A stretch of DNA of 64,000 nt from Candidatus Pelearchaeum maunauluense (GTDB lineage Archaea; Thermoproteota; Nitrososphaeria_A; Caldarchaeales; Caldarchaeaceae): positions 35,547-99,546 of the forward strand of contig JANVYQ010000003.1 in assembly GCA_030059675.1 (NCBI GenBank), read 5' to 3'. The notes below the pieces were generated by a model, which saw only the letters and a program-made list of their open reading frames with translations, was not told the DNA's origin and did no database searches. Of the stretch, positions 9,700-51,240 are shown in pieces. The position numbers and the translations under genes are program-made. The number at the start of each line of letters is the position of its first letter. The stretch's first letter is position 1.

Positions 9700-10600
9700 C
9701 TAGGGGAGCTCAACCCAGTCATCTAGGAAGGAACGCGCGTGCTGTGTGTCAACGCGGTAGGCGAATGCGGAGCCCATGCAGTTTGCGTTTAAGACGAATA
9801 AGTTGACGCCTACTATCACTTCTTCTCCTGTTTCTGTTTTGTGGATTACGGGGCCTCCTGAGTCTCCGAAGCATGTTCCTCCTGAGCCTGTTCCTAGTCC
9901 TGGGTCGTTGGTGTATTGTATGTTGAATCCATCGTTGAGCGCGCTGCGCAGGTCTATGAGCATTACTTCACCCACGTAACGGGTTCGTTCTGCTTGGAGG
10001 AATGGCCTTACTGACTGAAGTCCATAGCCTACTACTGTGAAATGAACCTCTTGGAGCCCTCTTCGCGTGGCTAGAGCGTCCAAATAGCCTTCGGGGGCTA
10101 GCTTTCCATATTCTGGCAGATCTATCTCCTCGTCAAAGATTATTAGACCAACATCATGGGTGTCGGGTATGGTTAGTCTTCCCGTCCACTCAGGATGTGC
10201 TATAGGTGTGCCTATCTCTCCTCCGCCGCATGGGTATCCTGCCACATCTGGCGTGCATGGTTCTCCAGGCTCCCAGTCAGGGTCAAGTTCTATGGGTCCT
10301 ACTTCAAACCATACCTGCGCGTGTGTGGGTATTATGTCTAAGTCTGGGTCGTAGCCTGCGCAGTGGCCCGCAGTTAGGAATATGTTGGGCGCTATCTGCG
10401 CGCCGCTACACCTCCAATAGGGGTATTAGGTTTCCTTCCTCGTCGGTGGTGTAGAAGACCGCCAGCCCGACGTATGGGTATCTATTGTCAGAGTCGGGCT
10501 CCCCAAACTGTATAGCCAGGACACTGCCCTGCGCTAGGGCTGCCAACGTCAACGCTGCTATAACAAGCGATATGGGTAGCTGTTTTCCAAAGTTTTTCAT
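9700..10600 (-). pseudogene. Secreted trypsin-like serine protease (S1 family) split by a frameshift near a GGGG run around 10411-10414. Signal peptide ORF 10406..10600, body 9700..10402
   Basis: MKNFGKQLPISLVIAALTLAALAQG signal. In the other frame, IFLTAGHCAGYDPD (His), HDVGLIIF (Asp), GDSGGPV (Ser). The full catalytic triad is present but split across two frames. Confidence 0.65.
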
Positions 10601-10674
10601 ATTAGCTATTTTAATTTCATGAATCCTTTATAAAATTTTATAATAAAACCACAAACTTGATTATCGTTATATTG

Positions 10675-11643
10675 CTATTTCCGCGCTGTATGCCTTTTCG
10701 TGAGAGGCGGTAGGTCTGCTAACGTGGCTAATCCTACTCCTGTTTTGTGTATTAGTTTCGCTACGTTGAGTATTACTGAAGCCGTCGCTATATCTCCTGG
10801 TGTTCCGCTGCTTCTCCACGTTATGCTCGGCTCCCCCTCTATTCTTATCTCATCATACTCCTCGTTATCCAGCCTGGCTACGAATCTAAGCCTTATCTGT
10901 ATATTCTCCTTTGTTATGGCTTCTGCGATTCCCTGAAGACCCAAGGCCCGCCCATCATCGCCCAGCAATGGTTTCTGCTCTTCATGAACATTTACGAGCT
11001 CCAGATTCAGCAGATGTGCGAGAAGAGCTATGGATTCTGCATACCCTACGTGGCCTGTAATCTTCCCAGAGTTCATTAACTCCATCCATTCATTCTCCGA
11101 AAGCCCTATTCCGATTTTCTTTTGGAAGCTTTGCCTACGTCTTGAAGCGTCAAGACTTCGCGTTATGCTAATTGATTTTATCTCGTGGCATGGTGTTGTG
11201 AGTATTGCTGGCAGGTAGTCAAAGAGGAATCCTGGGTTTATGCCAGCTCCTACTATTCTTGCCCCTCCTTTCTTTGCTTCTTCATTAAGCTGTGCTGCTA
11301 GTGATGGGTAGCGATAATAGGGATAGACTAGCGTCTCGCATGTTGATACTACATCAACACCGAGCTTGGCGCATAGGCTTAGCTGCGGATATACCCTATC
11401 CAAGTAGCTGCCTGTGGCGTGTATTACTACGTCGGGCTTGGTTCCTTCAATAACCCTCTCAGCATCACCATCGATTTTAACACCCATATCTCCTATCCTT
11501 AATACTTCACCGACATCTGCGCCCACTAAAGATGGATTAACATCAATCACCCCGACGCATCTAAATCCCTGTCTCAACGCCAGAGCTGTTATAAGCCGTC
11601 CTATCTCACCAAAGCCATACATAACGAAAGTTTGGGGCTCCAT
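10675..11643 (-). CDS. NAD(P)-binding oxidoreductase of the dihydrodipicolinate reductase (DapB)-like/amine dehydrogenase family
   Basis: N-terminal Rossmann MYGFGEIGRLIT, 322 aa, DapB-like layout. Confidence 0.5.
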   Translation of the reverse strand: MEPQTFVMYGFGEIGRLITALALRQGFRCVGVIDVNPSLVGADVGEVLRIGDMGVKIDGDAERVIEGTKPDVVIHATGSYLDRVYPQLSLCAKLGVDVVSTCETLVYPYYRYPSLAAQLNEEAKKGGARIVGAGINPGFLFDYLPAILTTPCHEIKSISITRSLDASRRRQSFQKKIGIGLSENEWMELMNSGKITGHVGYAESIALLAHLLNLELVNVHEEQKPLLGDDGRALGLQGIAEAITKENIQIRLRFVARLDNEEYDEIRIEGEPSITWRSSGTPGDIATASVILNVAKLIHKTGVGLATLADLPPLTKRHTARK

Positions 11644-11922
11644 AACTACCGCTCCACCACACCCTTATTAAATAATAAAAATAATTCTTAACTACGTTGG
11701 AAATCCGCCGTAAGAGAGTTCTCTGGCCTCATCTTATATGGTGGAATCTGAACAGAGTCGTTTTAAGTAGTGATTCTACGTTAAATGGAGTTTTTTTACA
11801 TTTTTTGGTTAAATGCGGGAAAAATCAACTTTGTGATTCTATCTAGGTGTTTTCATGGATAAATTATGGTGGTTGTTTGTTGGTGCGGGATGGTGATTGG
11901 CAAGGAGAAGGCTGGTGGAGGC

Positions 11923-12279
11923 ATGATGCGGGTAGTGGGAAAGCACGTATATGGAAATCTCTATGACTGTGATTCATCCATCATTAATGATGAGCGAAGG
12001 CTTGTTCAGGTGGTTAGAGAAGCGGCCGAGATAGCCAACGCTACACTAGTGGAGGTATATTCATGGAGTTTCGGAGGAGACATGGGCGGAATCTCGGTAA
12101 TAGCGCTGGTCAAAGAAAGCCATATAGCACTACACTCATGGAGCAGATACAATTACGCAACTCTAGACGTATATACCTGTGGAGAGCACACCAACCCAGA
12201 AAAAGGATTTGACTACATAGTTGAAGCGTTAAAGCCCAGGAAAGTAGTTAAACATGAGGCAAAGCGCTCATTAGAGTAA
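11923..12279 (+). CDS. speH: Pyruvoyl-dependent S-adenosylmethionine decarboxylase proenzyme family (SpeH-like; crenarchaeal paralogs can be arginine decarboxylase)
   Basis: MMRVVGKHVYGNLYDCD..., ESHIALHSW...DVYTCGE motifs. ORF-track start 11866 is probably too far upstream. Confidence 0.7.
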   Translation: MMRVVGKHVYGNLYDCDSSIINDERRLVQVVREAAEIANATLVEVYSWSFGGDMGGISVIALVKESHIALHSWSRYNYATLDVYTCGEHTNPEKGFDYIVEALKPRKVVKHEAKRSLE

Positions 12280-12281
12280 TT

Positions 12282-13436: not shown

Positions 13437-13547
13437 GCGAGATGAATCAGTAACTACTATCGCATATTAGCATAATGAAAATTAACAGCGTTATTTCTCT
13501 ATAGTTGGAGTCTAAATACTTAAAGCGTATAAGACATTCCACACTTA

Positions 13548-15473
13548 TTGATTAGTCCTATGCCCAGCGTAATCTTGGGTGAGTCTGGTAAGTCTGATTT
13601 TCTGATGGGAAACGAGGCAATAGCACGGGGAGCTTTGGAGGCAGGTGTCGCTGTCGCTGCAGGTTATCCTGGAACGCCTTCATCCGAGATAATAGATACG
13701 TTGCTGGAGGTAGCTGAGGAGTTTGGGATTTACGTAGAGTGGTCTGTTAATGAGAAGGTCGCTCTAGAGATAGCTCTCGCGGCAAGTTTCTGCTGGGCTA
13801 GGTCGCTCTGCGCTATGAAGCACGTAGGCCTAAACGTTGCCCACGACGCTCTAGTGAATGCCTGCTACATAGGAGCGCGAGGAGGCTTCGTAATAGTCTC
13901 CGCGGAAGACCCTGGAGCATGGAGCTCGCAGAACGAGCAGGACAACAGATACATAGCCATGCAGGCCTACATGCCAGTCTTTGAGCCCTCAGACCCGCAG
14001 GAAGCAAAAGACATGATCGTCTATGCTTATGACTTCTCTGAGCAGCTGAATACTCCAGTCCTGCTCAGAACCGTGACGTGCGTAAGTCATTCTACGGGGA
14101 GTTTTGTCTTCGGCGATATCGTAAAGCCTGAAAGGCGGGTATATTTTGAGAAGCGGCCAGACTTGCTCATATACGATTCCGCCGGAGCTCGTAGGAATCG
14201 TCTAGCATTAATTAAACGATTCGAGAAAGTGCGGGAGGCAGTAAATAGCGTCCCCTTCAATAAGATGATGTTAAACGATGGCAGTGTGGGGGTTATTGTT
14301 TCAGGGGTAGCATACCGCTATGTGATGGAAGCTCTCAAAATTCTAGACAGAAAGGATAAAGTCTCTCTTCTGAAGATAGGTACACACTATCCCCCTCCAA
14401 GGGAAGCGATAGTAAGGTTCCTAGGCGCTGTTGATAGCGTCATGGTTGTTGAGGAGGTTGAGCCCATTCTAGAAACGCTTGTAAAGAGTATAGCTTATGA
14501 GGAGGATATAGATGTAGAGATTTGCGGACGGAGTATTCTTCCTAGAGGTGGCGAGCTAACCCCGCGCATAGTCTTGGAGGCGTTATCCAGCTTTCTAGAC
14601 ATAGATAATCCGCTTGATGCTGATGCGCTGGATAAGGCATGGGGCTACAGTAATAGCCTGCCACCACCTAGGCCGCCTACCCTGTGCCCAGGCTGCCCAC
14701 ACAGGGCAAGCTTCTACTCAATCTCCACAGTGGCTAAGAGGCTTGACAGGAATCCCAAGCTCTACGGGCTGGACCAACTATATGGGGAGAAAACAGAAAC
14801 AATACTGCCTGGCGATATAGGGTGCTACGGCCTGGCTTACCTACCGCCGTTCAAGGCAATAGACACGATAATCTGTATGGGCGCAGGCCTGGGGTTTGCC
14901 AACGGCCTAGCCAGGCTAGTAAAACAGCCAATAATAGTAAGCGTGGGAGATTCTACATTCTTCCACGCAACAATACCAGCTCTGATAAACGCCGTCTACA
15001 ACAACGCGCGGATAGTTCTGGTAGTGCTGGATAATGACGTAACAGCTATGGCTGGGGAGCAGCCCCATCCAGGTAGTAGCATCGTTTCCCAAGAGGGTAA
15101 GAGGCTTATAAAGATAGAGGACGTGGCCCGCGGATGTGGTGTGGAGCTGGTGCGCGTGGTCAATCCAGGAAACTTTGAAGAAACTCAAAAAGCGCTGGTG
15201 GATGCTCTGAAACATGATGGGCCGTCTGTCATAGTTCTTAGACGGCCTTGCGAGCTTCTACGAGTGCGTGAAAGGCTGCGCAAAGGAGAACCCCAGTCCC
15301 CATACATGGTGCTCACCGAGAAATGTACTGGCTGCATGATATGCATCAACCAGTTTGGATGCCCTGCTATAGTCAAAGCAGGTGATAAAGTGATGATAGA
15401 TTCCTCCATCTGTACTGGATGCGGGGACTGTGCTAAGGTCTGTGTTCCTAAGGCTATTGTGACGTGTGGTTAG
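13548..15473 (+). CDS. iorA: Indolepyruvate:ferredoxin oxidoreductase alpha subunit (IorA)
   Basis: GNEAIARGALEAGVAVAAGYPGTPSSEI TPP-enzyme N-terminus; C-terminal 2x[4Fe-4S] CTGCMICINQFGCP...CTGCGDCAKVC; 641 aa. Confidence 0.8.
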   Translation: MISPMPSVILGESGKSDFLMGNEAIARGALEAGVAVAAGYPGTPSSEIIDTLLEVAEEFGIYVEWSVNEKVALEIALAASFCWARSLCAMKHVGLNVAHDALVNACYIGARGGFVIVSAEDPGAWSSQNEQDNRYIAMQAYMPVFEPSDPQEAKDMIVYAYDFSEQLNTPVLLRTVTCVSHSTGSFVFGDIVKPERRVYFEKRPDLLIYDSAGARRNRLALIKRFEKVREAVNSVPFNKMMLNDGSVGVIVSGVAYRYVMEALKILDRKDKVSLLKIGTHYPPPREAIVRFLGAVDSVMVVEEVEPILETLVKSIAYEEDIDVEICGRSILPRGGELTPRIVLEALSSFLDIDNPLDADALDKAWGYSNSLPPPRPPTLCPGCPHRASFYSISTVAKRLDRNPKLYGLDQLYGEKTETILPGDIGCYGLAYLPPFKAIDTIICMGAGLGFANGLARLVKQPIIVSVGDSTFFHATIPALINAVYNNARIVLVVLDNDVTAMAGEQPHPGSSIVSQEGKRLIKIEDVARGCGVELVRVVNPGNFEETQKALVDALKHDGPSVIVLRRPCELLRVRERLRKGEPQSPYMVLTEKCTGCMICINQFGCPAIVKAGDKVMIDSSICTGCGDCAKVCVPKAIVTCG

Positions 15474-15477
15474 AGCT

Positions 15478-16593
15478 ATGAAGGTGGATAAAATCATCTC
15501 GAGTGTCGGTGGTCAGGGAACTATGCTGGCCGCCCGCGTGTTGGGCAGAGCCGCCTGCCGAGCAGGGGTAAACGCCCTAGGAGCAGAGCTTCTTGGACTC
15601 TCACAACGCGGCGGCTCGGTAGTAAGCCATATACGAATAGGAGACGATACATACTCACCAGTGATAATGGAAGGCACGGCAGAGGGAGCTGTGGCGGCCG
15701 TCCCCAAGCTAGCCGCCGCGGGAGTTCAGATAATAGTAGGCCCTCTAGCAACCATTGAGACCAAAGCCGTCTTGGATTTCCTGAACTCTAGGAAGATAGT
15801 TGCGATAAGCCCATCAAGCACGGGAACCGCCGCGCGTGTTAAGGATGACTTCGTATTCAGGATGCCGCCCCCAGACGTTTATCAAGCCCCAGCAATAGCT
15901 AGGATTGCGTGGGAGGTTGGTATAAGAAATCTGGTCATACTCGCTAGGAATGATGATTATGGTAAGGGGCTTGCCGATGGTGTTGAAGAGACGTTCATAC
16001 AGCTCGGTGGTAAGGTTACCAAGCTGCTCTACGACTATACTCAGCCAGACCTGAGCGCGGATGTTGAGCGAGCAAGCGCGGCTGTGGCTAACTATGGGGC
16101 TAACGAACAAACGGGCGTGGTCGTGATAGGGTTTGACGAGACGGTCAAAATATACGACAGGGCCAGGCTTGACCCCGTGCTATCTGAGGTTAGGTGGTTC
16201 GGTAACGACGCCGTAAAGAGGCCGACCTTCCTACCTCCCGAATCCAAGGAGGAGATAGCCGAGTTCCAGAGACAGGTACGCATACTCGGAACAGCCCCAG
16301 CGGTAGGGCCTGAAGACAACCTATTAGTCAAGAGATTCGTTGAGCGTTATAAGGAGAGATTTGGCGAGGAACCAAGCCTCTACTCATACTACGCATACGA
16401 CGCAGCCATGGTTGCGATGCATTACTACGGCGTAACTGGCTGGAAGCTGCTGGACGAGTATGGAGACAACGCTACTCCCCTATATGACATATGGACTGTA
16501 GTTAAACAGCCAGACGGAACATGGACCTTCAAGGTAGTCGGACTATACGACGGGGCTACGGGCTCCATCAAATTCTACGAAGAAGTTGGATGA
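15478..16593 (+). pseudogene. Chimeric ORF: first ~80 aa of IorB (indolepyruvate oxidoreductase beta) fused in frame to a LivK/LivJ-type branched-chain amino-acid binding protein that lacks its signal peptide and first ~90 residues
   Basis: N-terminus MKVDKIISSVGGQGTMLAARVLGRAA...SQRGGSVVSHIRIGDDTYSPVIMEG is IorB-like. From ...IIVGPLATIE...SPSSTG...FRMPPPD...ARNDDYGKGLADGVEETF...QPDLSADV onward it is type-1 periplasmic binding protein. No alternative frame continues IorB. Confidence 0.55.
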
Positions 16594-16675: not shown

Positions 16676-17449
16676 GTGTGCGGTATGGCTGAGATACTGG
16701 CGACACGCGAATTAACAAAAAAGTTCGGCGGCCTCATAGCAGTGAATAACGTAACTATGAGCATTAATCGCGGTGAGGTAGTAGGTCTAATAGGCCCTAA
16801 CGGGAGTGGGAAAACAACACTAATAAACGTAATATCAGGCCTTTACAAGCCTGACGCTGGGAAAGTTTACTTCAATTGAGAGGATATAACTGGTCTTGGT
16901 GCTTGGGATGTTTTTAAGAAGGGGTTGGTGAGAAATTTCCAAGTACCCAGACTTTTTGGCGGTATGCTGGTCTTTGAGAATGTTATGACTGCTTTCCGCG
17001 GCCAGAGGGGTGAGAACCCTATTCTGGCTCCGTTTAAATCCATGTGGGGGGAGCAGGAGATTAGCCTAGCTAGAGACGCGCTAAACATACTCTCACAGCT
17101 ACAGCTGGCCCATGTAAGGCTTAATTGGGCTACGGAGCTAAGCGGCGGGCAGATGAAGCTCGTTGAGATGGCCCGCTCACTAGCCTCGCAGCCCCAGATG
17201 CTACTCCTAGACGAGCCAGCGGCTGGAGTAGCTCCCAAACTAGCCCACGAAATATTCAAAAACATAATAAAACTAAACAAAGAACTGGGAATAACATTCA
17301 TCATAATAGAACACCGCCTGGACATACTATTCTACTACGTGGAACGCGTATTAGTCATGAACAATGGAAAACTAATCTTTGACGGAAGGCCTGAGGATGT
17401 TTACAAGGATAAGCTGGTCATAGAGGCTTATCTTGGTGAGGCTGAATGA
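16676..17449 (+). pseudogene. livG: LivG-type ABC ATPase with an in-frame TGA at 16877-16879 (GKVYFN-stop-EDITGL; the position is normally Gly/Asp)
   Basis: Walker A GPNGSGKTT before the stop. Q-loop, signature and Walker B follow in the same frame (16880..17449). Confidence 0.6.
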
Positions 17450-18165
17450 GTAATGCCATAATCGAGGCTAGGGGAGTTACTGCTGGTTATGGTAAGTCGG
17501 TGATAATTGAGGATAATGATATAGTTATTGAGCGGGGTAAGATTACCTCTATAGTTGGGCCTAACGGCAGTGGGAAGAGTACGCTTCTAAAAACGATTGT
17601 CGGGCTTACGCGTCTTTTTGCGGGGCATATAATTTATGATGGCCATGAAATAACGCGTATGCAGCCTGAGGAGAGGAGTAGGATAGGTATTGGATACGTG
17701 CCGCAGATTGCTAACATCTTCCCCAACCTCACGATAATTGAGAACCTTGAGATAGGCGGCTACATGAGGAAGAGTAAGGAGGAGGTTAAGCACGATATTG
17801 ATGAGGTGATGGATATCTTTCCTGTTTTGCGTGAGCGTGCGCGGCAGAAAGCTGGGACGCTAAGCGGAGGGGAGCGGCAGATGCTTGCTATGGCGCGCGC
17901 TTTGATGGCAAAGCCGAACATACTCCTGCTTGACGAGCCTGCTGCCGCTCTAGCTCCTATAGTGGTTTCACGCATCTTTGCGAAGATTCGCGAGATTGTT
18001 AGTAAGGGGATAACCGTAGTGCTCGTTGAGCAGCACGCAAAACGCGCATTAGAGTTATGCGACTACGGGTATGTAATGACTAGTGGAAGAATAGCCATGC
18101 GGGGAAGCGGCAGGGAAATACTCTCCGACGAGAAATTTGTAGAGGCCGTCCTAGGGAGGAGGTAA
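17446..18165 (+). CDS. livF: LivF-type ABC ATPase, apparently intact
   Basis: GPNGSGKSTLLKTI, LSGGERQMLAMARAL, LLLDEP; 239 aa; 4-nt overlap with livG. Confidence 0.8.
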   Translation: MSNAIIEARGVTAGYGKSVIIEDNDIVIERGKITSIVGPNGSGKSTLLKTIVGLTRLFAGHIIYDGHEITRMQPEERSRIGIGYVPQIANIFPNLTIIENLEIGGYMRKSKEEVKHDIDEVMDIFPVLRERARQKAGTLSGGERQMLAMARALMAKPNILLLDEPAAALAPIVVSRIFAKIREIVSKGITVVLVEQHAKRALELCDYGYVMTSGRIAMRGSGREILSDEKFVEAVLGRR

Positions 18166-18179
18166 GGCGCCCCCTGGCT

Positions 18180-19112
18180 ATAGACCTCACCCTACCTCTT
18201 CTAAACTCACTCGCCCTAGGGAGCCTCTATACCCTAATGGCCCTTGGGCTAACTATAACGTTCTCAGTAACAAGAATACCCAACTTCGCGCACGCGGAGT
18301 TGGTTACAGTGGGCGGATACGTTACCGCCGTGCTCGTTAATTTCATGGCGTTCCCCCCATATCTGGCTCTACTGTCCGCTTTCATAGCATCGGCAATACT
18401 AGCCCTAGGCATGGACGAGCTTGTCTTCAAACCACTATACAAACGAGGCTCCAGGCCGTTATTCCTATTGGTGGCTAGTATAGGTGTGGGCCTGATAGTG
18501 CGCTACACACTCTTCTCCCTTGCCGACGCTACAGGAAACATAACAATACAAACTAATGTGTCGGTAAACCCAATAATGAGGTTTGGTCGCGCATACATAA
18601 CCATGTTCCACGCCATAGTTATACCAGTAACAATAGCCATAGTCATAATCCTACACATACTCTTCCATTACACGCTCATGGGAAAGGCTCTGAGGGCTAT
18701 TTCGGACAACGAAGACCTAGCTAGAGTCTCTGGAATACGGATATACAGGCTACGGCGAGTAGCGTGGCTGATAGCTGGAGGGGCGGCTGGACTAGCGGGA
18801 GGCTTGTGGTCAATAAGCCTGATTATAGACCCCAACTTTGGATGGGACACACTTCTACGGATATTCGCATCCTCGATACTCGGCGGATTAACAAGCTTCT
18901 GGGGGACGATAATAGGCGGATACATAGTCGGCTTCGCAGAGAATATGGGAATAGCGACGCTCAATACCTGGTTTGGAATAAACACAGCATATAGGCCACT
19001 CATATCCTTCACCATCATAGTCGCGGTATTCCTGATAAGACCGCGCGGCTTCGCTGGTATAGATGTGAGAAGTATAATGTCTCGGTTGGTGGTGAGCAGG
19101 CCACGGTCCTAG
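18180..19112 (+). CDS. livH: LivH-type permease. The conserved N-terminus (I/M)DLTLPLLNSLALGSLYTL begins at an ATA codon (18180) where ATG is expected. The first canonical start (ATG 18237) would remove about 19 conserved residues
   Basis: In-frame stop-free extension upstream of 18237 matches the LivH consensus N-terminus (MDLLLQQLLNGL...). No ATG/GTG/TTG in that extension. Confidence 0.55.
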   Translation: MDLTLPLLNSLALGSLYTLMALGLTITFSVTRIPNFAHAELVTVGGYVTAVLVNFMAFPPYLALLSAFIASAILALGMDELVFKPLYKRGSRPLFLLVASIGVGLIVRYTLFSLADATGNITIQTNVSVNPIMRFGRAYITMFHAIVIPVTIAIVIILHILFHYTLMGKALRAISDNEDLARVSGIRIYRLRRVAWLIAGGAAGLAGGLWSISLIIDPNFGWDTLLRIFASSILGGLTSFWGTIIGGYIVGFAENMGIATLNTWFGINTAYRPLISFTIIVAVFLIRPRGFAGIDVRSIMSRLVVSRPRS

Positions 19113-19216: not shown

Positions 19217-20188
19217 GTGCCAAACTTTGGTCATGTATTCTTCCAGTCGGTAGGTGCTTACGTGGCTGGGAACATGACGGCCAACGTGCTTTACATGGTT
19301 GCGGTAGCTGGTGGTGATATATGCTCCGTAGCAACCGCAGAGGTGAGGCGTAACCTAGCTATAACCAGCCCACCACTTGCTATAGGTATGTTCGTAGCCT
19401 CGCTAGCTTTAGGCGCCGTCGTGGGCGGATTGCTCGGATATATAGCAAGCTACCCAGCACTCAGGTTGAAAGAAGACTATCTCGCAATCACGCTGATATT
19501 CATAGGCGAGATAGGCAGGATAATAGCGCGAAACGAAGAAGGAATAGCCTGCGGCCTAGTCGGCCTAACAGGGGTACCAAACCCCTTCATATGGCTAGGC
19601 GACCCCAACCTATCGCTAATAGCATACACCATTATGTCAATAATCATAGCAGGCCTCATCTTCATATTCCCGCAGAAGCTCTCCAACTCCCCCTTCGGAA
19701 GACTGCTGAAGAGTGTTCGCGACGACGAGACAGCCGCGATGAGCTTGGGCAAGAACGTAGCCAAGGCGCGGGGCTGGGCCATGATAGTAGGAAGCGCAAT
19801 AGCAGCAGTTGCAGGCGTGCTCAAAGTCTTCTACGCACAGGGAGTATTCGCAGACGACTACATACCATTAACAACGTTCGTAGTCCTCTCCATGGTAATC
19901 CTGGGAGGAATGGCTAACAATAGGGGAGTAATCCTAGGAGCACTAATCATAACACTGCTGGACTTCCTAATAGCGCCCTCACTCTTCAGACTGATGGGAA
20001 TAACAATACAATTCGACATAACATACATCAAATACATCATAACAGGCCTAATCATAGTCCTAGTCCTCCTATTCAAGCCGCAGGGAATATTACCCGAAAA
20101 ACCAATAGAGACGCCTGCCTTAAGCTTGGTTAAAAAGGAAGATAAGTCATTAAGCAATAAATCCTTACAGAAAAACAGAATGAGCTGA
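19217..20188 (+). CDS. livM: LivM-type permease. Conserved N-terminal TM region (LDQLYSITPFITTLLTFYAVYLILALSLNLIYGYCG) lies upstream of the GTG at 19217 in a stop-free frame with no canonical start
   Basis: GLN-like LNLIYGYCGVPNFGHVFFQSVGAYVAG motif; 323 aa from the GTG; upstream frame is open back to 18995. Confidence 0.55.
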   Translation: MPNFGHVFFQSVGAYVAGNMTANVLYMVAVAGGDICSVATAEVRRNLAITSPPLAIGMFVASLALGAVVGGLLGYIASYPALRLKEDYLAITLIFIGEIGRIIARNEEGIACGLVGLTGVPNPFIWLGDPNLSLIAYTIMSIIIAGLIFIFPQKLSNSPFGRLLKSVRDDETAAMSLGKNVAKARGWAMIVGSAIAAVAGVLKVFYAQGVFADDYIPLTTFVVLSMVILGGMANNRGVILGALIITLLDFLIAPSLFRLMGITIQFDITYIKYIITGLIIVLVLLFKPQGILPEKPIETPALSLVKKEDKSLSNKSLQKNRMS

Positions 20189-20253: not shown

Positions 20254-20772
20254 TTGGCAAATATAGTAGGTGGTTGGAAGGGGAGGTTCTACGAGGACTT
20301 TACGGTTGGTGATGTGTATATACATCCTTATGGGAGGACAATAACCGAGGCGGACAATATCTGGTTTACCTTGCTGACCATGAATATGAATGAAATTCAT
20401 TTTAACGCTGATTATGCTGCTGAGACTGAGTGGGGTAGGCCGTTGGTTAATAGCGCGCTTACTCTAGCTGTTGTTCTTGGTATGAGCGTCATGGATGTGA
20501 GCCAGAATGCGATAAACCTTGGGTGGGAGGAGATAAAGCTACCCAACCCCGTGTTCGCTGGAGACACCCTATACGCCCAGACGGAGGTGCTGGAGAAACG
20601 CGAGTCCCGCTCGCGCCCGCACATGGGGATAGTCAAGCTAAAAACAATAGGCTATAACCAGGACGGGAAGATAGTGCTGGAAATGAAGCGGACAATAATG
20701 GTTTGGAAGAAGGCTTATGCCCCAAGGTCTAAGATTGAGGAGAAGCGTAGGAAGATAGCTGGCGAGAAATGA
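20254..20772 (+). CDS. MaoC-like (R)-specific enoyl-CoA hydratase / hot-dog fold dehydratase
   Basis: 172 aa, hot-dog pattern with the conserved ...EIHFN... (H not D) region. Confidence 0.7.
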   Translation: MANIVGGWKGRFYEDFTVGDVYIHPYGRTITEADNIWFTLLTMNMNEIHFNADYAAETEWGRPLVNSALTLAVVLGMSVMDVSQNAINLGWEEIKLPNPVFAGDTLYAQTEVLEKRESRSRPHMGIVKLKTIGYNQDGKIVLEMKRTIMVWKKAYAPRSKIEEKRRKIAGEK

Positions 20773-21851
20773 TAGGCAATAGATTCGCCCCTCTTGAGGG
20801 GATACGCGTGATAGAGATAGGCCACTTCGTAGCAGCGCCCAACCTTGGGGCGTTGTTGGCCTATTTCGGGGCTGAGGTCATCAAAATAGAGCCCCCCAGC
20901 GGCGACGAAAGCAAGAGAGTAGCCCCGTGGGCATACTACATATTCTCACAAAACAAGAAGAGCATAGCTATAGACCTGACAAAACATGAGGGGCTTGAAC
21001 TATTCAAAAACATCATCAAAACCTGCGATGTTCTAATTGAGAATCTCTCACCTAAGGCGATTGAAAAGCTGGGCATTGGTTATGATGCTCTTTCAGCTCT
21101 CAACCAGCGCTTAATATACTGCTCCATCAAGGGGTTTGCAAGCGATAGCCGAGACTGGAGGAGACCAGCTTTTGACACCGTTGCGCAGGCCGAGTCTGGC
21201 CTCTTAGCCGCTCTAGGCCGCGAGGGTGAGGAGCCCATAAGGATAAACAACCCCTGCATAGACATGGGGGCCGCCGCCTACGCGCTCGCCGCAATAGCTA
21301 TGGCGATAATGCAGCGCGCAAAAACGGGTAGGGGCGCGTATATAGAAGTCCCATTACTGGATGTGGCTGTATATTGGAACGGTTACTGGATAGCATACTA
21401 CTCATTAACAGGCCGTGAGCCAGCTAGGCTAGGGGCTGGACATGCTGGATACTCCCCCTACGGCATATATAAAGCGCGGGATGGCTATGTATTCATAGGC
21501 GTAATAACCGACGAGCAATGGCTAAAATTATGTGAGCGGCTTGGAATAACTCCGCCAGAGAATCTGAGGAGCATGCAGTCAAGGATAGAGAATCGTCTAG
21601 AGGTGGACAGGCTTGTTGGGGAGAGCGTAGCTAGGTTGAGTGTTGAGGAGGTTTTAAAGAGGCTGCGGGACCTAGTTCCAGCCTCGACTTTAAAAAGTGT
21701 AAAGGATGTTGCTGAAGACCTAGAGCTGGAGAAACGAGGCGTGATAGTGCCCGCTAAGGTTGATGATAAAGTCGTAAGAGTAGCCCAACCACCTATAAGA
21801 ATAAACAAAAACAAGCCCAGTACAAATTATTGTGATAGACAGCAGAGCTGA
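20769..21851 (+). CDS. CoA-transferase family III (CaiB/BaiF-like), second copy; 4-nt overlap with the MaoC gene
   Basis: IRVIEIGHFVAAPNLGALLAYFGAEVIKIE signature. Confidence 0.8.
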   Translation: MIGNRFAPLEGIRVIEIGHFVAAPNLGALLAYFGAEVIKIEPPSGDESKRVAPWAYYIFSQNKKSIAIDLTKHEGLELFKNIIKTCDVLIENLSPKAIEKLGIGYDALSALNQRLIYCSIKGFASDSRDWRRPAFDTVAQAESGLLAALGREGEEPIRINNPCIDMGAAAYALAAIAMAIMQRAKTGRGAYIEVPLLDVAVYWNGYWIAYYSLTGREPARLGAGHAGYSPYGIYKARDGYVFIGVITDEQWLKLCERLGITPPENLRSMQSRIENRLEVDRLVGESVARLSVEEVLKRLRDLVPASTLKSVKDVAEDLELEKRGVIVPAKVDDKVVRVAQPPIRINKNKPSTNYCDRQQS

Positions 21852-21861
21852 TGTGCATAAA

Positions 21862-22482
21862 CTATTGGAAGAGCTGGGCTATAGTGTTGATGAGATAGCG
21901 CAACTGTATAAGAAAGGTGTTATAATAAACATAAAAAATATTATAATTTATTTTCGTTAAGGGCTCAACAACTATCTTGCCGAACATCCCCTTCTCTTGA
22001 TGGAGTACTGGGAATGTCCCTCCTGCTCTCTGACACACATACCAGTAGGTTCCCGGCTCGTCTATGGTAAATTCAATAACACGCATTTCGTCAGGCTCTA
22101 CCTCGGCCTCTATTTCGTTATAAGCCATGTCAATCTCCTCCATCATCATGGCTATTCTCTCATCTGCTTCCTCGGGGTCTGTTATCCCCTGCTCAAGTAG
22201 CTTCTGCGCCATTTCTTTCATCATCGTAAGAGCCTGGTCCTTATCCTTTACCACCATAAACTCGTGAGGATGCGAGCCTGCGTTTGTGAGCGTTATTCTA
22301 ACAAGTTGGCCTGCTTTGATTGTTAATGTTGGGCCGAAGCCTGGCCTATCAAAACCATAATCCACCATAGTCAGCTCAAACACAGCAACCTTCGGCTGAA
22401 GCATCGGCACTACGACAAATATGGCCGCACCAGCTACTACAGCTACGACAACTATAACAGCTATTAAAGGGCCTGCTTTCAT
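21862..22482 (-). CDS. Membrane-anchored type-1 copper protein (sulfocyanin/plastocyanin-like cupredoxin) with an acidic helical insertion
   Basis: N-terminal TM; Cu ligands GSHPHEF ... YWYVCQRAGG..H...GMFGKIVV. Confidence 0.6.
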   Translation of the reverse strand: MKAGPLIAVIVVVAVVAGAAIFVVVPMLQPKVAVFELTMVDYGFDRPGFGPTLTIKAGQLVRITLTNAGSHPHEFMVVKDKDQALTMMKEMAQKLLEQGITDPEEADERIAMMMEEIDMAYNEIEAEVEPDEMRVIEFTIDEPGTYWYVCQRAGGTFPVLHQEKGMFGKIVVEPLTKINYNIFYVYYNTFLIQLRYLINTIAQLFQ

Positions 22483-24005: not shown

Positions 24006-26459
24006 GTGGCTCATGCAAACAATAAACCAAACCCACTTGTAGTCTGGCTTTTTACAACAAACCATAAAAACGTGGGAATACTCTACCTAGTGACATCCCT
24101 CTACTTCCTTGTGGTTGCTGGTATTCTAGCTCTCACGTTTAGGATGCAGCTGAGCGCGCCCAACATGGTATTCCTCGCAGCAGACTCTTACAACCAAGCG
24201 GTTACGCTGCATGGTCTCTTCATGCTTCTCTGGGTAACCACGCCGCTGGCCGCTGCTTTTGCCAACTACGTGGTTCCAATCCAGATAGGCGCTAAGGATA
24301 TGGCGTTCCCGCGCCTTAACGCGCTGAGCTACTGGCTCTACCTAGCAAGCGGCATAGTTGCGCTAAGCAGCTTCTTCGCCCCAGGAGGCACGGCTGACTG
24401 GGGATGGACAACATACGCGCCTCTAAACACGCTACAGTATAGCCCGCAAGCAGGAGGCTCGCTAATGGGCCTAGCAATACTGCTCCTACTCAGCTCCACG
24501 ATAGTAGCGACCTCAAACTTCATGGTAACAATATTCAGGCTACGCGCCCCTGGTATGAAGCTCTCATACCTCCCACTATTCTCAATATTCTGGCTGGTAA
24601 CCCAGTTCCTGCTACTATGGGCTTTCCCAGCCTTCGCCGCCCCCCTGCTCATGCTGGTCTCCGATAGGGTCCTTGGAACAGTATTCTTCACAGCAGCGGA
24701 AGGAGGAGCGCTACTCTGGGACCACCTACTATGGTTCTTCGGCCACCCAGAGGTTTACATACTCGTCCTACCAGGCCTGGCTATAGCTGGAGACGTCCTA
24801 GCAGTGTTTAGCCGAAGGCAGCTCTATGCCAAGAAAGTCATAATCATAGCAGTAAGCGTAGCCGCGTTCCTAAGCTACGTCGTATGGGTACATCACATGT
24901 TCATGACTGGCATACACCCAGGGCTAAGGGAGGTCTTCAACATAACGACAGAACTAATCTCAATACCCTTCGGAGCTATAATGCTCTCATATATCCTAAC
25001 CCTCTTTGGAGGCAGGATAAGGGCGACGACACCTTTCCTATTCGCTCTAGGCTCTGTGATACTCTTCATAATAGGTGGGGCCTCAGGCGTCTTCAACTCT
25101 TCGGTAGCCCTTGACGTGGGGATGAGAGGAACCTTCTGGGTGGTAGGGCACTTTCACTACACCATAGTGGGCGGCGGGATAACTGGCCTGATAGCTGGAC
25201 TATACTACTGGTGGCCGAAGATGACTGGAAGAATGTTCAGCGAAAAACTGGGCAAACTACACTTCGCAATCTACATGATAGGCTTCAACCTACTCTACTT
25301 CCCGATGCACCTACTCTACGACATGCCGAGAAGAATATTCTTCTACGACGCCACAACGGGCTGGGGCCCGATAAACATGCTCATAACCATGGGCTCCTGG
25401 ATCTTCGCGTCATCATTCATAATACTGTTCATAAACCTCATCAACAGCCTTCGCCATGGCCCTAAGGTGGGCGACGACCCGTGGGGAGGTGCCAACTACT
25501 CGCTTGAGTGGAACGTTCCTTCTCCGCCTCCAGAGTTCAACTTCCCGAAAGGCGTTCCGGTGATAACCGCGCAGGGCCTTGAGTTTAGGCAGCCTTGGGA
25601 GATTAAGATGGGCATAACAACAACTGGCGGCCAGCAGCTATACGGCACCACAGCCCTCCCTACAAACGGCGGGAGCCATGTGGCTGAGCACGGCGAGGAG
25701 CATGGGCCGCATCTAAGCCCATGGCCCTTCATACTCTCAATAGGTGTTGCACTAACCATGATCGGCCTGGTGTTTGGAGTGCCTCTACTGCTGCAGGGAG
25801 TGGTGATATTCATCGCCTCCATAGTGGGCTGGGCTTGGGAGGATGTTAAAGAGAAGTTCCACGTAGCTATTGAAGCGCTGGGCGAGAAGTGGCCATTTGA
25901 CAGGGTTGAGAACGTGCCCCTAGGGATGTGGTTCTTCCTCTTCGGTGAGGTGGCGCTCTTCGGCCCGCTCTTCGCAGCCTACTTCTTCGTCCGCGCCAAC
26001 AGCGCCTACACAGGCTTCGCGTGGCCTCTGCCAGGTCAGATACATAGCACAGTCATGGGAGCAATCTCCACAATAATCCTACTAACAAGCGGCCTCGCAA
26101 CATCACTGGCGCTAGTGGCGATAAAGAACAACAACCAGCGCGGCCTCAAGGCAGGGCTCCTCACAGCATTCATACTAGGCCTAGCCGTGCTGTTCATAGA
26201 GGGATTCCAGTGGGCTGAGCTCTTCGCAGAGGGCTACACGTTCGGAACAGACATAGCGGCCAGCATCTACTACCTAATAACGGGCATCCACGGTGCGCAT
26301 ATACTGGCTGGCCTGCTGATAATAATCTACCTACTGGCAAAAGCCTACAAGGGAGGCTACAACGCGGAGAAGCACATGGGCGTATATGCATTCGCCATAT
26401 ACTGGGGCTTCGTGGTGGGCGTATGGCTATTCACGTTCCCACTATTCTACCTAATATGA
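24006..26459 (+). CDS. Heme-copper oxidase subunit I fused to subunit III (SoxM/AoxB-like)
   Basis: GHPEVYILVLPGLA, 817 aa, C-terminal ...HGAHILAGLLII... subunit-III-like block. Confidence 0.9.
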   Translation: MAHANNKPNPLVVWLFTTNHKNVGILYLVTSLYFLVVAGILALTFRMQLSAPNMVFLAADSYNQAVTLHGLFMLLWVTTPLAAAFANYVVPIQIGAKDMAFPRLNALSYWLYLASGIVALSSFFAPGGTADWGWTTYAPLNTLQYSPQAGGSLMGLAILLLLSSTIVATSNFMVTIFRLRAPGMKLSYLPLFSIFWLVTQFLLLWAFPAFAAPLLMLVSDRVLGTVFFTAAEGGALLWDHLLWFFGHPEVYILVLPGLAIAGDVLAVFSRRQLYAKKVIIIAVSVAAFLSYVVWVHHMFMTGIHPGLREVFNITTELISIPFGAIMLSYILTLFGGRIRATTPFLFALGSVILFIIGGASGVFNSSVALDVGMRGTFWVVGHFHYTIVGGGITGLIAGLYYWWPKMTGRMFSEKLGKLHFAIYMIGFNLLYFPMHLLYDMPRRIFFYDATTGWGPINMLITMGSWIFASSFIILFINLINSLRHGPKVGDDPWGGANYSLEWNVPSPPPEFNFPKGVPVITAQGLEFRQPWEIKMGITTTGGQQLYGTTALPTNGGSHVAEHGEEHGPHLSPWPFILSIGVALTMIGLVFGVPLLLQGVVIFIASIVGWAWEDVKEKFHVAIEALGEKWPFDRVENVPLGMWFFLFGEVALFGPLFAAYFFVRANSAYTGFAWPLPGQIHSTVMGAISTIILLTSGLATSLALVAIKNNNQRGLKAGLLTAFILGLAVLFIEGFQWAELFAEGYTFGTDIAASIYYLITGIHGAHILAGLLIIIYLLAKAYKGGYNAEKHMGVYAFAIYWGFVVGVWLFTFPLFYLI

Positions 26460-29970: not shown

Positions 29971-30064
29971 TTAATTATACTACCTAAAGTTAATATTAAA
30001 AGACTATATCCCACCAGCCTAACATTTAGGATGAACATATCATGAAGAGAGAAAATCTGCACAA

Positions 30065-36603: not shown

Positions 36604-37440
36604 CTACCATAGGAAGGCGCCTTCCCAAATTATGAGGAATAGCATGAGCCATATGAGGTCAACGAAGTTCCAGTAGAGGCTTACTGCATCAAGGAATCCA
36701 TGGCTCTTGGGTTTGAAGTGTCCCAGCTTGGCCCTCCCTGCGGCTATTGCGAGGACTATTATTCCCCCTACAACGTGGGCTCCGTGAACGCCTGTTAGTA
36801 TGTAGAAGCTGGAGCCGTAGAACCCGCTTGCTGGCGTGAAGCCAAGCTCGTAAATCAGGCGAGGCCACTCAATACCGAGCTTAAGCCCCATGAACACTAT
36901 ACCCAAAACCATAGTAGCTAGAATGCCCGCTAAAACGCCTCGGTTATTCCCCTTCTTAGCAGACCATACGGCCAGTTCTATGGTAACGCTGCTGGTTAGT
37001 AGTATTATCGTCTGGATTCGTGGGATGAAGTTTTCTAGGTGAGGAGCTCCTGGCGGAGGCCAGACAGGGAAGGTGGAGCGTATAAGGAAATAAGCTCCAA
37101 ATGCTGAAGCGAAGAACGCCGTCTCAGTGAGGAGGAAGAGCGCGGTTGGGAAGCCGACGCTCCCTACCTTCTCAGGCTCGGCGGGTATTGGCGTCTTCTG
37201 AAGCCTCTCAAAGAAGCTGGAAATCACGTGCTGCCACTGCCTAACCTCAAACACCACAAAAACCACTAACAAAGCGATGAAGTAGAAGACTAGAATTAAG
37301 CCTACTGTTGTGTATATCCCTTTAAGCAGGAGAATTAGGCCGGCTATCAGCGCTATGGTGTTCAGCCCAACGATAGCAGGCCAGATGCTCCCCTCCTCAT
37401 GTTCTTCATGAGCCGCGTGAGCGTTAGTTTCTGCGCTCAT
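36604..37440 (-). CDS. Stand-alone heme-copper oxidase subunit III homolog
   Basis: GVHGAHVVGG...YWNFVDLIWLMLFLIIW subunit-III signature. Confidence 0.7.
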   Translation of the reverse strand: MSAETNAHAAHEEHEEGSIWPAIVGLNTIALIAGLILLLKGIYTTVGLILVFYFIALLVVFVVFEVRQWQHVISSFFERLQKTPIPAEPEKVGSVGFPTALFLLTETAFFASAFGAYFLIRSTFPVWPPPGAPHLENFIPRIQTIILLTSSVTIELAVWSAKKGNNRGVLAGILATMVLGIVFMGLKLGIEWPRLIYELGFTPASGFYGSSFYILTGVHGAHVVGGIIVLAIAAGRAKLGHFKPKSHGFLDAVSLYWNFVDLIWLMLFLIIWEGAFLW

Positions 37441-41864: not shown

Positions 41865-41890
41865 GAATAACTAGTGAAGTAGATATAGCT

Positions 41891-45960: not shown

Positions 45961-46071
45961 AATAGGAAATACCGCTAAATCATATTTTAGGTTTTTGAAT
46001 TTAATCCAGCTTCTCAAGGATTAATAATTAGCTTGCTTCTCTGGCCGACGACTAGTGGGCGGTGAAGCTGT

Positions 46072-47544: not shown

Positions 47545-47606
47545 AATTATCCCTCTCACGTTTTTAAGATACTTCCACCTTACATACAATAGACAGGTGA
47601 CGCATA

Positions 47607-48731: not shown

Positions 48732-48777
48732 CTGTAAGCATCAGGAAGATACATATACAGAGAGGGCGGGCTCTTAA

Positions 48778-49563: not shown

Positions 49564-49566
49564 GAC

Positions 49567-49917
49567 TTGAGCGACCCCGCGGAGACGCTTCAACAACTCG
49601 CACGGGAATATCCATCTCTCTTTGACGAAGCATATCAGGCTGTTAGAGAGGGAAAGGTAAAGAAATACTGCTTCTATCCAAGCGGTAAGGTGGAGTGGAT
49701 AGTAGTAGGGAGAAACCGCGACTACCTCATACTCCCAGAAGCCAACTACTGTAGTTGTGAAGATTTCTTCTTCCGCGTACTAAGCCAAGAAAAACCCATG
49801 TGCTACCACATACTGGCCGTCAGAATAGCAACGCTAACAGGCAGATACGAGGAAATACAAGAAGCAGACCACTGGCGTAGAAGACTGATAAAAGAATGGA
49901 TACCCAGAGAGGAATAA
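49567..49917 (+). CDS. Small SWIM zinc-finger protein
   Basis: YCSCEDFFFRVLSQEKPMCYHIL = CxCx15CxH SWIM signature; 3-nt gap after the phosphoesterase. Confidence 0.5.
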   Translation: MSDPAETLQQLAREYPSLFDEAYQAVREGKVKKYCFYPSGKVEWIVVGRNRDYLILPEANYCSCEDFFFRVLSQEKPMCYHILAVRIATLTGRYEEIQEADHWRRRLIKEWIPREE

Positions 49918-49921
49918 ACTC

Positions 49922-49930
49922 TAAAATAGG
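49922..49930 (+). promoter_or_regulatory. TATA box (TAAAATA) about 25 nt upstream of tRNA-Ser
   Basis: Position and composition typical of archaeal tRNA promoters. Confidence 0.4.
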
Positions 49931-49952
49931 AAACAACACATAGTGTTTTGGG

Positions 49953-50065
49953 GCCGGGGTCGGGTAGTCCGGCTAGCTCGCCGGCCTCGAGATCCGCTCT
50001 ATTAAGCTGGTCAGGATAGCCGGTGGCCTTCTCGGGCCGCGTGGGTTCAAATCCCACCCCCGGCG
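49953..50065 (+). tRNA. tRNA-Ser (anticodon CGA), type II with 17-nt variable arm and a 26-nt intron at the canonical 37/38 position (about 49992..50017)
   Basis: Acceptor GCCGGGG/CCCCGGC, G73, D-arm GGGT-AGTCCGGCTA-GCTC (A14, G18G19, A21), anticodon stem CCGGC/GCCGG flanking CTCGAG-intron-A, T-arm GTGGGTTCAAATCCCAC. Length 113 = 87 + 26. Confidence 0.75.
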
Positions 50066-51240
50066 TTTTTCTTATGTGTTCGTCTTTTAAGGAATAGGTA
50101 TAATGGTAGAGCAATCGTTGCCAGCGGTGCGCTGCCAACTACTAGTATTAAGAGTCCTCTCAGGATGGTGTAGAGTAGTGTCACGCCGGTTATGAAGGGC
50201 TCTGTTGGGTCTATGTCGTGTAGCGTGGGTTTTGCGGGTTGTAGTATGCTGACAGTTATCTGTGATGTATCTGAAGTTTTTGTCTCCATATTACGTGTCT
50301 CCCCCAAAGCTGTTATCTTGGAGATAAGCTCATCAAAAATATCCGCAGGGACGTTAGCCACGATTTCGCCTGACCATCTCTCATTAGCAACTCTAAGTGA
50401 AGACCTTACCACATACCCTCCAGAATCGCGGGCTAGCTTTTCAATAACCGCGAGTGTGTTTGCCACATCTTGGCTCTCTAGGATTATGAACGCGGAGCGC
50501 GGCTTTGTTGGTAGCTGAGCCTGTAGTAGCTCAACCCTAATAGTAGAGAAACTGACTGTATTCTCGAGATAGTTTATCCTGCCAGTTAGACGTTCTATCT
50601 CTCCCCTCACCCTCTCCAGCTCCCTCTCCATACTCAGCAAATCATCAACGCTGGCTGCAAGCCTCATGGTTTCCAGTAATCTCTCTTCTTGACGCAGTAG
50701 ATTATCACGGCGGGCACGTAGGTCTATATATTCCTCGGTAACATCATCGCTCTGAGTATTCTTTTCCACCACTCGTCCAAGGGTCTCTATGTCAGCTATG
50801 GCCTGGTAGAAACTGTTACGTGGAACCCGTATTGTGATCGAGGCTACTTGTTTTCCATTAATTATAGTTGATGAGGTACCTGCAACGTATCCACCCAATT
50901 CTTTAGCCACATTAGCAATCTCATCCATTACATCCCCAACGTTATTTACCTCTAGCTTAATATTGGCCGTGAACGCTATCATCCTACCCAAATCACCAAC
51001 TTGATTATCTCTTCTCACAGCATACTCAAGTTGCTCCATTATGGTAGTGGCTGTTTGAATACGCGTAACTGTTGTAACACCCGATACGGGTTGTCCACTC
51101 ATCACAAAATCATCTATAGATGCTGGGCGGCTGGCTTGTGGTTTTTGCTAGGTTAAACTCCCTGCTACCATGCCAACAATTATCAAAATCGTTATAACTA
51201 CTAGCAGCTTTACATGCTTATTCTTAGCCAACCTGCGCAT
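50047..51240 (-). pseudogene. DUF4349-like membrane-anchored protein (TM anchor, two repeated domains, coiled coil, C-terminal TM) with an in-frame TAG at 51148-51150 between the N-terminal anchor and the body. Its 3' end overlaps the tRNA-Ser 3' end on the opposite strand
   Basis: ATG at 51240 gives MRRLAKNKHVKLLVVITILIIVGMVAGSLT, then TAG, then in the same frame QKPQASRPASIDDFVMSGQPVSGV... (the track ORF starts at 51105). Confidence 0.45.
50066..50070 (+). terminator. Oligo-T tract directly after the tRNA-Ser 3' end
   Basis: TTTTT immediately downstream of the discriminator. Confidence 0.35.

Follow-up and report, generated by a model that had tools for sequence, protein, structure and literature searches.

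Lineage-specific accumulation of pseudogenes after a niche shift or a population bottleneck is well known in bacteria such as Mycobacterium leprae, Shigella, Salmonella Typhi, and Burkholderia mallei. A deletional bias was reportedly described by Mira, Ochman, and Moran in 2001. Among thermophilic archaea, homopolymer insertions and deletions (indels) break genes in Pyrobaculum aerophilum (Fitz-Gibbon et al. 2002, cited in PMC4471258), and Sulfolobus acidocaldarius has a mutational spectrum rich in frameshifts in short runs despite its overall accuracy (Grogan et al. 2001, in PMC4471258). Here we describe a 64,000-nucleotide stretch of Candidatus Pelearchaeum maunauluense (hereafter, the window) in which genes for a sugar ATP-binding cassette (ABC) importer, a Liv-type ABC importer, neighboring oxidoreductases, a secreted protease, an envelope protein, and probably a CoA-transferase are disrupted or deleted, although all are intact in the closest available relative. 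We put the probability that these are genuine, evolutionarily recent pseudogenes and deletions of the Ca. P. maunauluense lineage, and neither sequencing noise nor the product of a special mutator, at about 0.8. The best reading of their origin is ordinary neutral decay of dispensable organotrophy genes, for which no mutator and no host-associated or rich-medium lifestyle would be needed.

The window corresponds to positions 35,547-99,546 of contig NODE_43_length_202821_cov_5.535789 from a metagenome-assembled genome (MAG) of this member of the Caldarchaeales, which is no Pyrobaculum-like crenarchaeon. The placement is anchored by published gene _74 (64070-64372 on NODE_43), which lies at window positions 28524-28826, and the window proteins match GenBank entries MDJ0269731-776 exactly. 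The MAG, 146_bin.21 (GCA_030059675.1), was assembled with MetaSPAdes from paired short reads; the DNA came from fumarolic lava rock collected at Mauna Ulu, Hawai'i, a steam-fed habitat in which the organism is free-living (PMC10547907). It is the type genome of a newly named genus under the SeqCode, and its only close relatives are two deep-sea hydrothermal MAGs (PMC10547907). As comparator we used a "Candidatus Pelearchaeum sp." MAG from the Brothers volcano vents (L001), together with a 105.8-kb vent scaffold (scaffold_52, in pieces L033, L034, and L035). L001 provides the best match to the coxI+III fusion of the window among species-representative genomes (97% amino acid identity). Combined, L001 and scaffold_52 are collinear with window positions 9665-58597 at about 87-90% nucleotide identity. 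Both were aligned to the window and every sister codon was projected onto it, so that 47 genes and 46.4 kb of coding sequence could be compared.

An earlier reading of this DNA from its sequence alone had proposed comparing lesion positions with those in sister strains. By that comparison, all 47 of the compared genes are full length in the sister and every lesion falls on the window side. For each lesioned locus an intact orthologue of the unitary pseudogene occupies the syntenic place in L001 and scaffold_52. In total, the window contains 12 frameshifting single-base indels, three nonsense codons, one probable start loss, and deletions of 145 nucleotides (nt), 69 nt, and 6.1 kb. The single-base events are nine deletions versus three insertions; larger deletions number four. 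The five loci that the sequence-only reading had named as disrupted (the sugar ABC operon, the Liv locus, the protease, a DUF4349-like membrane protein, and a 1.5-kb hypothetical gene) are all broken in the window and all intact in the sister.

The genes it had called clean also hold up. There is no frameshift or premature stop relative to the sister in nrdJ, the coxI+III fusion, the aminoacyl-tRNA synthetase genes (PheRS alpha and beta, TyrRS, and AspRS), top6A, or iorA. The UPF0182 gene was judged by length and Pfam coverage only, and by these is complete. Likewise, an FTR1 permease gene just beyond the syntenic stretch was judged only by its full Pfam profile coverage. Also intact between 9.6 and 58.6 kb are the other cox genes, an MFS transporter, two QueT genes, a Mrp/NuoN-like gene, livF, and livM.

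The sugar block comprises a DUF2139 gene followed by genes for a CUT1-type importer (Table 1). Importer membership is supported by Pfam matches in the sister operon to SBP_bac_1 for the substrate-binding protein (SBP), two BPD_transp_1 permeases, and a MalK-type ATPase (ABC_tran plus OB_MalK/TOBE). The published KEGG orthology (KO) assignments, in the part of the annotation table covering these genes, are K02027, K02025, K02026, and K10112. The fragments in the window align codon for codon with the sister at 94-98% amino acid identity. The hypothetical gene that had been described as lying in three frames is the DUF2139 gene; at the second of its two single-base deletions, where the sister has a C6 run, the window reads TCCCC, and the gene appears as three separate Prodigal open reading frames (ORFs) in the portion of the published annotation that covers it. 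The same source splits MalK into three malK ORFs. For permease 1, we considered whether the single-base insertion compensates for the 145-nt deletion (net loss of 147 nt); this was rejected, as a stop comes 15 nt past the deletion. Replacements at conserved sites of the SBP include W423R, D391G, and D399N, and MalK carries G232V within the conserved GFIGSP motif.

The flanking genes, of the TrmB, cox, and FAA-hydrolase types, carry no lesion. The window encodes two sugar-sensing regulators of the TrmB family (27321-28439 and 6443-7222). The one directly upstream of the dead block is intact and under purifying selection, with a ratio of nonsynonymous to synonymous substitution rates (dN/dS) of 0.065. 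A metagenome scan with the SBP fragment retrieved only distant relatives (at most 48% amino acid identity) and no independent assembly of the same population; these relatives were used as outgroups.

Table 1. Lesioned genes and their operon neighbors in the window, with differences from the sister genome. Lengths are in amino acids (aa) or nucleotides (nt); +1 and -1 denote single-base insertions and deletions.
Feature	Coordinates	Strand	Details
Secreted trypsin-like serine protease pseudogene	9700-10600	-	Intact length 299 aa; one +1 frameshift
iorB::livK chimeric ORF	15466-16593	+	iorB codons 1-69 in frame with livK from codon 118
livG-like ABC ATPase	16676-17449	+	In-frame TGA at 16877-16879; GGA in sister
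livF-like ATPase	17446-18165	+	No indel or stop; dN/dS 0.041; inside the dead Liv operon
livH-like permease	18174-19112	+	TTG start of sister is CTG (18174-18176)
livM-like permease	19217-20188	+	No inactivating lesion; 1-nt indel 21 nt from the stop
Family-III CoA-transferase	20769-21936	+	+1 at 21827; premature stop at 21849-21851
DUF2139 gene	28515-29970	+	482-485 aa in sister; three frames here; -1 at 28810/28811 and 29112/29113
CUT1-type sugar SBP pseudogene	30042-31397	+	452 aa in sister; -1 at 30051 (A5 to A4, leader or alternative-start region), 30384 (GG to G), and 31154 (GG to G)
Sugar permease 1 pseudogene	31403-32143	+	145-nt deletion after 31779; 3-nt deletion at 31841; +1 at 31986
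Sugar permease 2 pseudogene	32140-32967	+	-1 at 32213 (T5 run), 32440 (A6 to A5), and 32502 (CCC to CC)
MalK-like ABC ATPase pseudogene	32970-34057	-	TAG at 33639-33641 within the LSGGQ signature (CAA in sister); -1 at 33793 (G5 to G4)
DUF4349 membrane-anchored protein gene	50047-51240	-	Amber codon at 51148-51150 (codon 31)

At the Liv locus the largest event is a deletion of about 6.1 kb that fuses the start of iorB to the body of livK. Pfam profiles trace the join: positions 1-69 of the POR profile are followed by Peripla_BP_6 from profile position 52. The junction (15674-15683) lies inside a microhomology of about 10 bp (GC.CCGCAGA) common to both parental sequences. Lost with the deletion are the 3' part of iorB, the porGD, porA, and porB genes of a 2-oxoacid oxidoreductase operon, a cupredoxin gene, a class-III aminotransferase gene, and the 5' end of livK with its signal anchor. 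livK has a second lesion, a 69-nt in-frame deletion at 16409/16410 with short direct repeats on either side. The translation of livG contains Walker A and LSGGQ motifs and is interrupted by an in-frame stop; the supplementary table of the genome paper, where it covers this contig, lists livG as two ORFs (PMC10547907). For livH the start codon is probably lost, because the next start (ATG 18237) falls within the first conserved helix. The 6.1-kb deletion, the livH start change, and the 69-nt livK deletion were not listed in the sequence-only reading. Membership in the HAAT (Liv) importer family is supported in the window ORFs by Peripla_BP_6, two BPD_transp_2 permeases, and two ABC ATPases (Pfam). 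The KO assignments in the relevant part of the supplementary table are K01999, K01995, K01996, K01997, and K01998.

In the secreted protease gene, alignment with intact 299-aa orthologues (P0001 and P0254) places one extra T on the coding strand (A on the forward strand) at 10417-10418. Dropping this base restores the conserved P-L-W-R-C motif, ...NLIPLWRCSGAQ..., which removal of a base from the GGGG run would not. The lesion had been assigned to a GGGG run at 10411-10414; those bases read CCTC, the GGGG run lies at 10420-10423, and the indel is the A/T at 10417-10418. For the DUF4349 gene, by contrast, the amber codon had been placed exactly. It divides the N-terminal membrane anchor from the remainder of the protein, and the GenBank product begins at a downstream ATG (351 aa versus 396 aa in the sister). 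The dN/dS of this gene, 0.23, is the maximum in the window.

The family-III CoA-transferase gene is a probable pseudogene. Its predicted product loses about 33 conserved C-terminal residues, which the other frame still encodes. We also considered the ORFs 20254-20772 and 20769-21851 as a split Liv binding protein, and rejected this because Pfam identifies two genes, a MaoC-type hydratase and the CoA-transferase. The convergent cupredoxin gene on the minus strand (21862-22482) has lost its stop codon and encodes 206 aa versus 175 in the sister (+31). Four indels relative to the sister (+1, +6, -5, and -3) occur in the spacer between the two genes (21827-21962).

The distribution of the lesions is far from even. 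Ten of the 12 frameshifting indels fall within one 5.6-kb block of five genes that makes up 12% of the 46.4 kb of compared coding sequence (corrected P about 3e-7). The limits of the block are gene boundaries, and more than 30 kb of intervening compared genes contain no frameshift indel. The earlier argument that random sequencing error would not respect functional class is borne out to this extent: the lesions cluster in functional units and are of types atypical of error.

The proposed association with G/C mononucleotide runs did not survive. Runs of at least five bases (measured in the sister) hold five of the 12 indels: C6, G5, A5, A6, and T5. That is two G/C runs versus three A/T runs, and the other seven indels occur in runs of one to three. 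Such long runs account for 1.4% of the window, so the enrichment exceeds 30-fold (P about 4e-7); it is base-neutral, the universal signature of slippage. Between the two genomes, intergenic DNA has accumulated 52 indels and about 390 substitutions (ratio 0.13), and the ratio in the pseudogenes, roughly 0.15-0.2, matches this background. From the ratio of 0.13 and the ten small indels in the sugar block, about 1-1.4% neutral divergence can be estimated. By rough calculation, this is enough to yield about one nonsense codon together with a few dozen additional replacements.

When amino acid replacements in the sugar operon were polarized by outgroup comparison with distant homologues, 17 fell on the window lineage versus 5 on the sister lineage (P=0.017). 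They include SBP W423R, two losses of Asp, and MalK G232V, and none adjoins an indel. The intact control genes are skewed in the same direction, 44:31 toward the window lineage. One intact control, a DsbH-like gene, alone gives 25:13, and we regard the excess in the sugar operon as suggestive and not as clear proof of relaxed constraint. The contig that provided the DsbH outgroup (L036/L037) is not syntenic and yielded no more control genes. In the published marker-gene tree, the branch to this MAG is 0.0278 versus 0.0165 plus 0.0004-0.003 for the sister (PMC10547907). The 44:31 skew in intact genes agrees with this roughly 1.5-fold longer branch and indicates a lineage-wide acceleration. The whole lineage is faster at the protein level, by about 1.4-1.5x, which fits a reduced efficacy of selection.

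Several points weigh against genuine decay of a dispensable module. Broken genes do not exceed their neighbors in pairwise dN/dS (0.015-0.06), and in polarized replacements they do not differ significantly from intact genes (Fisher P=0.14 for the sugar operon, P=0.30 over all broken genes). Because L001 and scaffold_52 are 99.7% identical, the comparison in effect draws on a single population. The lesions are thus polarized by the completeness of the sister genes and their agreement with family profiles, with no independent outgroup at the DNA level. With only about five independent first hits, any functional enrichment is suggestive and statistically not firm. The main caveat is coverage: the k-mer coverage of NODE_43 is only 5.5x, an estimated 11-15x or so in bases. 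The lesions are known from this one assembly, from which the split genes in the authors' Prodigal calls and the GenBank proteins also derive. Finally, the ecological explanation offered below is one that we infer.

The low dN/dS and the nonsignificant rate contrast together imply that the decay is recent, and low pairwise dN/dS does not contradict decay, as 1-1.4% divergence is invisible against a dS of about 0.4-0.5. We had considered uniformly low dN/dS as a sign of sequencing error, and rejected that in view of the platform, the lesion types, and the clustering. The relaxed selection proposed in the sequence-only reading is weakly supported: the 17:5 excess in the sugar operon speaks for it, but dN/dS is not raised, the controls stand at 44:31, and the contrast between them has P=0.14.

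Part of the proposed functional pattern stands. The lesions had been described as concentrated in uptake, secreted, and membrane genes. Uptake and protease genes are indeed hit and housekeeping genes are clean, but lesions spare many genes for membrane and transport proteins and have reached several catabolic genes of the cytoplasm. Among cytoplasmic genes, iorB, the porGD/A/B operon, and the class-III aminotransferase, family-III CoA-transferase, and DUF2139 genes are broken or deleted. By functional class, the hit genes serve largely in acquiring organic nutrients. They share two traits: they serve to take up and oxidize external amino acids, peptides, and sugars, and they are dispensable.

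Errors in short-read assemblies are overwhelmingly substitutions, with about one or fewer residual indels per 100 kb. Twelve indels in 46 kb assembled by MetaSPAdes from paired short reads are thus difficult to attribute to consensus errors at low coverage, which could be class-specific only if accessory regions had poorer or more heterogeneous coverage, and we regard such an artefact as improbable. Ten of the 12 indels in one operon-sized block bounded by genes, with more than 30 kb between without any, argue against it. So does the presence, in the operons that carry the frameshifts, of three nonsense codons and of the deletions of 145 and 69 nt, and a k=77 graph could not produce a 6.1-kb deletion with a 10-bp microhomology at its junction. 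Artefact would be more consistent with the 5.5x k-mer coverage (6.0x for the largest contig, where the source gives contig coverages), the normal dN/dS of the broken genes, and the excess of replacements in the window lineage even in intact genes. It would also accommodate the split ORFs on other contigs and an ORF count high for the genome size (2,086 in 1.79 Mb versus 1,624 in 1.57 Mb in a co-assembled MAG; PMC10547907). Phase-variable (contingency) switches or programmed recoding in surface and uptake genes would explain why some lesions lie in homopolymers of surface-exposed or uptake genes. This is scarcely credible given two to three independent lesions per gene, the irreversibility of the nonsense codons and of the 145-nt and 6.1-kb deletions, runs no longer than six, and no lesion in common with the sister.

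The sequence-only reading had also invoked the run instability proposed for P. aerophilum, in which lack of post-replicative mismatch repair allows mononucleotide runs to break genes. Hyperthermophilic archaea generally lack MutS/MutL, and the Sulfolobus spectrum is rich in frameshifts in short runs (PMC4471258), both of which count in favor of such a mutator, along with the more than 30-fold indel enrichment in long runs and the fairly high intergenic ratio of 0.13. A weak indication in the same direction is that the covered parts of the supplementary tables contain no MutS/MutL annotation, and NucS is annotated in related Caldarchaeales. Run slippage, however, occurs in all organisms, and a predominance of G/C runs was looked for and not found in this member of the Caldarchaeales (two G/C versus three A/T runs, seven indels in runs of at most three). 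The GGGG site offered as the flagship is not the lesion, the pseudogene indel ratio is not above the intergenic one, and three nonsense codons and four larger deletions are not slippage. The sister presumably shares the repair complement of this genome, yet none of its 47 compared genes has a lesion; the lineages differ in retention, through selection or drift, and not in an evident mutator. Mutator-driven decay is therefore also an unlikely cause. Still less likely is a rich-medium or host-associated life in which nutrient scavenging came under weaker selection. Breakage of a secreted protease and of two ABC uptake systems is what such a life would predict, but the proposal is without basis for an archaeon that lives freely on lava rock in the steam-fed fumaroles of Mauna Ulu. 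Its genome measures 1.8 Mb, and the respiratory and biosynthetic genes within the window are complete. Enzymes that catabolize the same substrates (iorB, the POR operon, CoA-transferase, and AORs) decay too, which points to abandonment or redundancy of organotrophy and not to ample supply. More generally, class-specific or homopolymer-linked lesions need neither a mutator nor a host, as selection hides lesions outside dispensable genes.

Under ordinary neutral decay, each dispensable locus for acquiring or burning external organic compounds would have been knocked out once. The loci in question would be the CUT1 sugar importer with DUF2139, one Liv system with the adjoining indolepyruvate and 2-oxoacid:ferredoxin oxidoreductases, the protease, the CoA-transferase, and the DUF4349 envelope protein. 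After the first hit, each operon may have drifted neutrally and gathered ordinary spontaneous mutations. These would include slippage indels (with runs of at least five of any base favored), stop-creating substitutions, and losses between microhomologies or short repeats, all under the deletion bias usual in prokaryotes. Such a spectrum is expected of spontaneous mutation in the absence of selection and agrees with that known from thermophilic archaea lacking MutSL (PMC4471258). The sugar block, with 11 lesions in 5.6 kb, would have been dead longest, yet only for roughly the most recent 5% of the divergence that separates the lineage from its vent sister, a timing that we infer. Retention of the lesions could reflect weaker or less efficient selection once the lineage had moved from submarine vents to fumarole rock on land. 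Redundancy among paralogues may have contributed, as may a probably smaller effective population. On redundancy, the annotation tables, in the part that covers them, give some ten ORFs for every kind of Liv-type component in a single MAG, which is presumably this one.

Fragmentation appears beyond the window as well. Three of four AOR genes are fragmented, according to the authors (PMC10547907). On NODE_10 of the same MAG, over the genes covered (1-111), adjacent ORFs share a KO for livG (two), fadD (three), and UGDH (two), and ALG11 is paired with its neighbor. Very low scores are given there for pckA (29) and rad50 (12), and full scores for ATPase, ribosomal, PCNA, and ppdK genes. For the part of NODE_10 listed, this suggests that gene fragmentation is genome-wide and extends beyond transporters. 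A broader interpretation, which we offer tentatively and consider possible though doubtful, is early genome-wide reductive evolution after colonization of fumarole rock from submarine-vent ancestry. Respiration and core functions would have been kept, substitution accelerated 1.4-1.5-fold, and an organotrophic module shed coherently. That module might, with the same reservation, comprise the secreted protease, the Liv and sugar importers, the indolepyruvate and 2-oxoacid:ferredoxin oxidoreductases, the AORs, and the CoA-transferases. If so, this would be a rare and datable case of decay at a habitat transition in a free-living thermophilic archaeon, and the published peptide and sugar heterotrophy would be overstated.

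These findings bear on how the type genome is read. The published interpretation, based on KO counts, is of an organism able to import and ferment amino acids, peptides, and sugars. Among the dead or deleted genes are those of at least one Liv system, a sugar ABC system, a secreted protease, iorB, and the neighboring POR operon, and fragments inflate the counts (livG twice, malK three times). The genome paper mentions neither pseudogenes nor frameshifts and counts fragments as functional transporters and peptidases (PMC10547907). The sister pair also provides a usable neutral indel:substitution ratio (about 0.13) and a deletion bias for an uncultured lineage of thermophilic archaea.

A few other differences and features were observed. 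Beside tRNA-Val, the window encodes an FTR1 iron permease (58590-59426, minus strand) where the sister has a three-gene ABC importer of the phosphonate type (Phosphonate-bd, ABC_tran, and BPD_transp_1; L033 195-2645). Window positions 58597-59462 are a tRNA-flanked cassette replacement, and the phosphonate-type importer is another uptake system absent from this genome. The tRNA-Val(TAC) gene itself (58493-58587, forward strand) is 95 nt long, which implies an intron; introns are common in archaeal tRNA genes. In the MFS transporter gene (53419-54597, forward strand) the GTG start of the sister is GTA, and an in-frame TTG five codons upstream preserves the ORF (392 versus 387 aa); this predicted change is a start shift and not an inactivation. 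The 817-aa coxI+III fusion (24006-26459) lies in a cox operon with two cupredoxin genes. A stand-alone COX3 gene (36604-37440) is found 10 kb away, and a further coxA/coxB pair occurs on the contig downstream of the window. Positions 1-1585, in otherwise dense coding sequence, contain only short ORFs (167-526 and 944-1282) without Pfam matches; the sister scaffold ends before this region. Where the published table covers this vicinity, it lists a ParD antitoxin and unannotated ORFs.

Overall, the locus adds one more case to a familiar process, the lineage-specific build-up of pseudogenes with a deletional bias, and is a useful correction that will not surprise specialists. As in M. leprae, Shigella, S. 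Typhi, and B. mallei, the sister is intact and the focal genome multiply hit, operons decay after a first hit, and deletions outnumber insertions. Transport and catabolic genes are over-represented in those cases too, and the protein clock runs faster genome-wide. Unlike them, the organism is a thermophilic archaeon that lives freely and is represented only by a MAG, and the window shows no expansion of insertion sequence (IS) elements. The extent of the decay is limited (about 11-13 of about 50 genes here) and its date very recent (about 1% neutral divergence). With P. aerophilum it shares a place in the Thermoproteota sensu lato, a thermophilic life, and genes broken by homopolymer indels; it differs in its order, Caldarchaeales, in showing no G/C preference, in having most indels outside long runs, and in having a sister without the lesions. 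The frameshift-rich spectrum of S. acidocaldarius is compatible with the ratios of 0.13-0.2 found here, although that spectrum was measured at a reporter gene and the ratio here comes from two genomes. Like the split genes of draft MAGs, the adjacent ORFs of identical annotation inflate gene and KO counts; unlike draft-MAG assembly errors, the lesions here are grouped by operon, have microhomology deletions and nonsense codons among them, and stem from short-read data.

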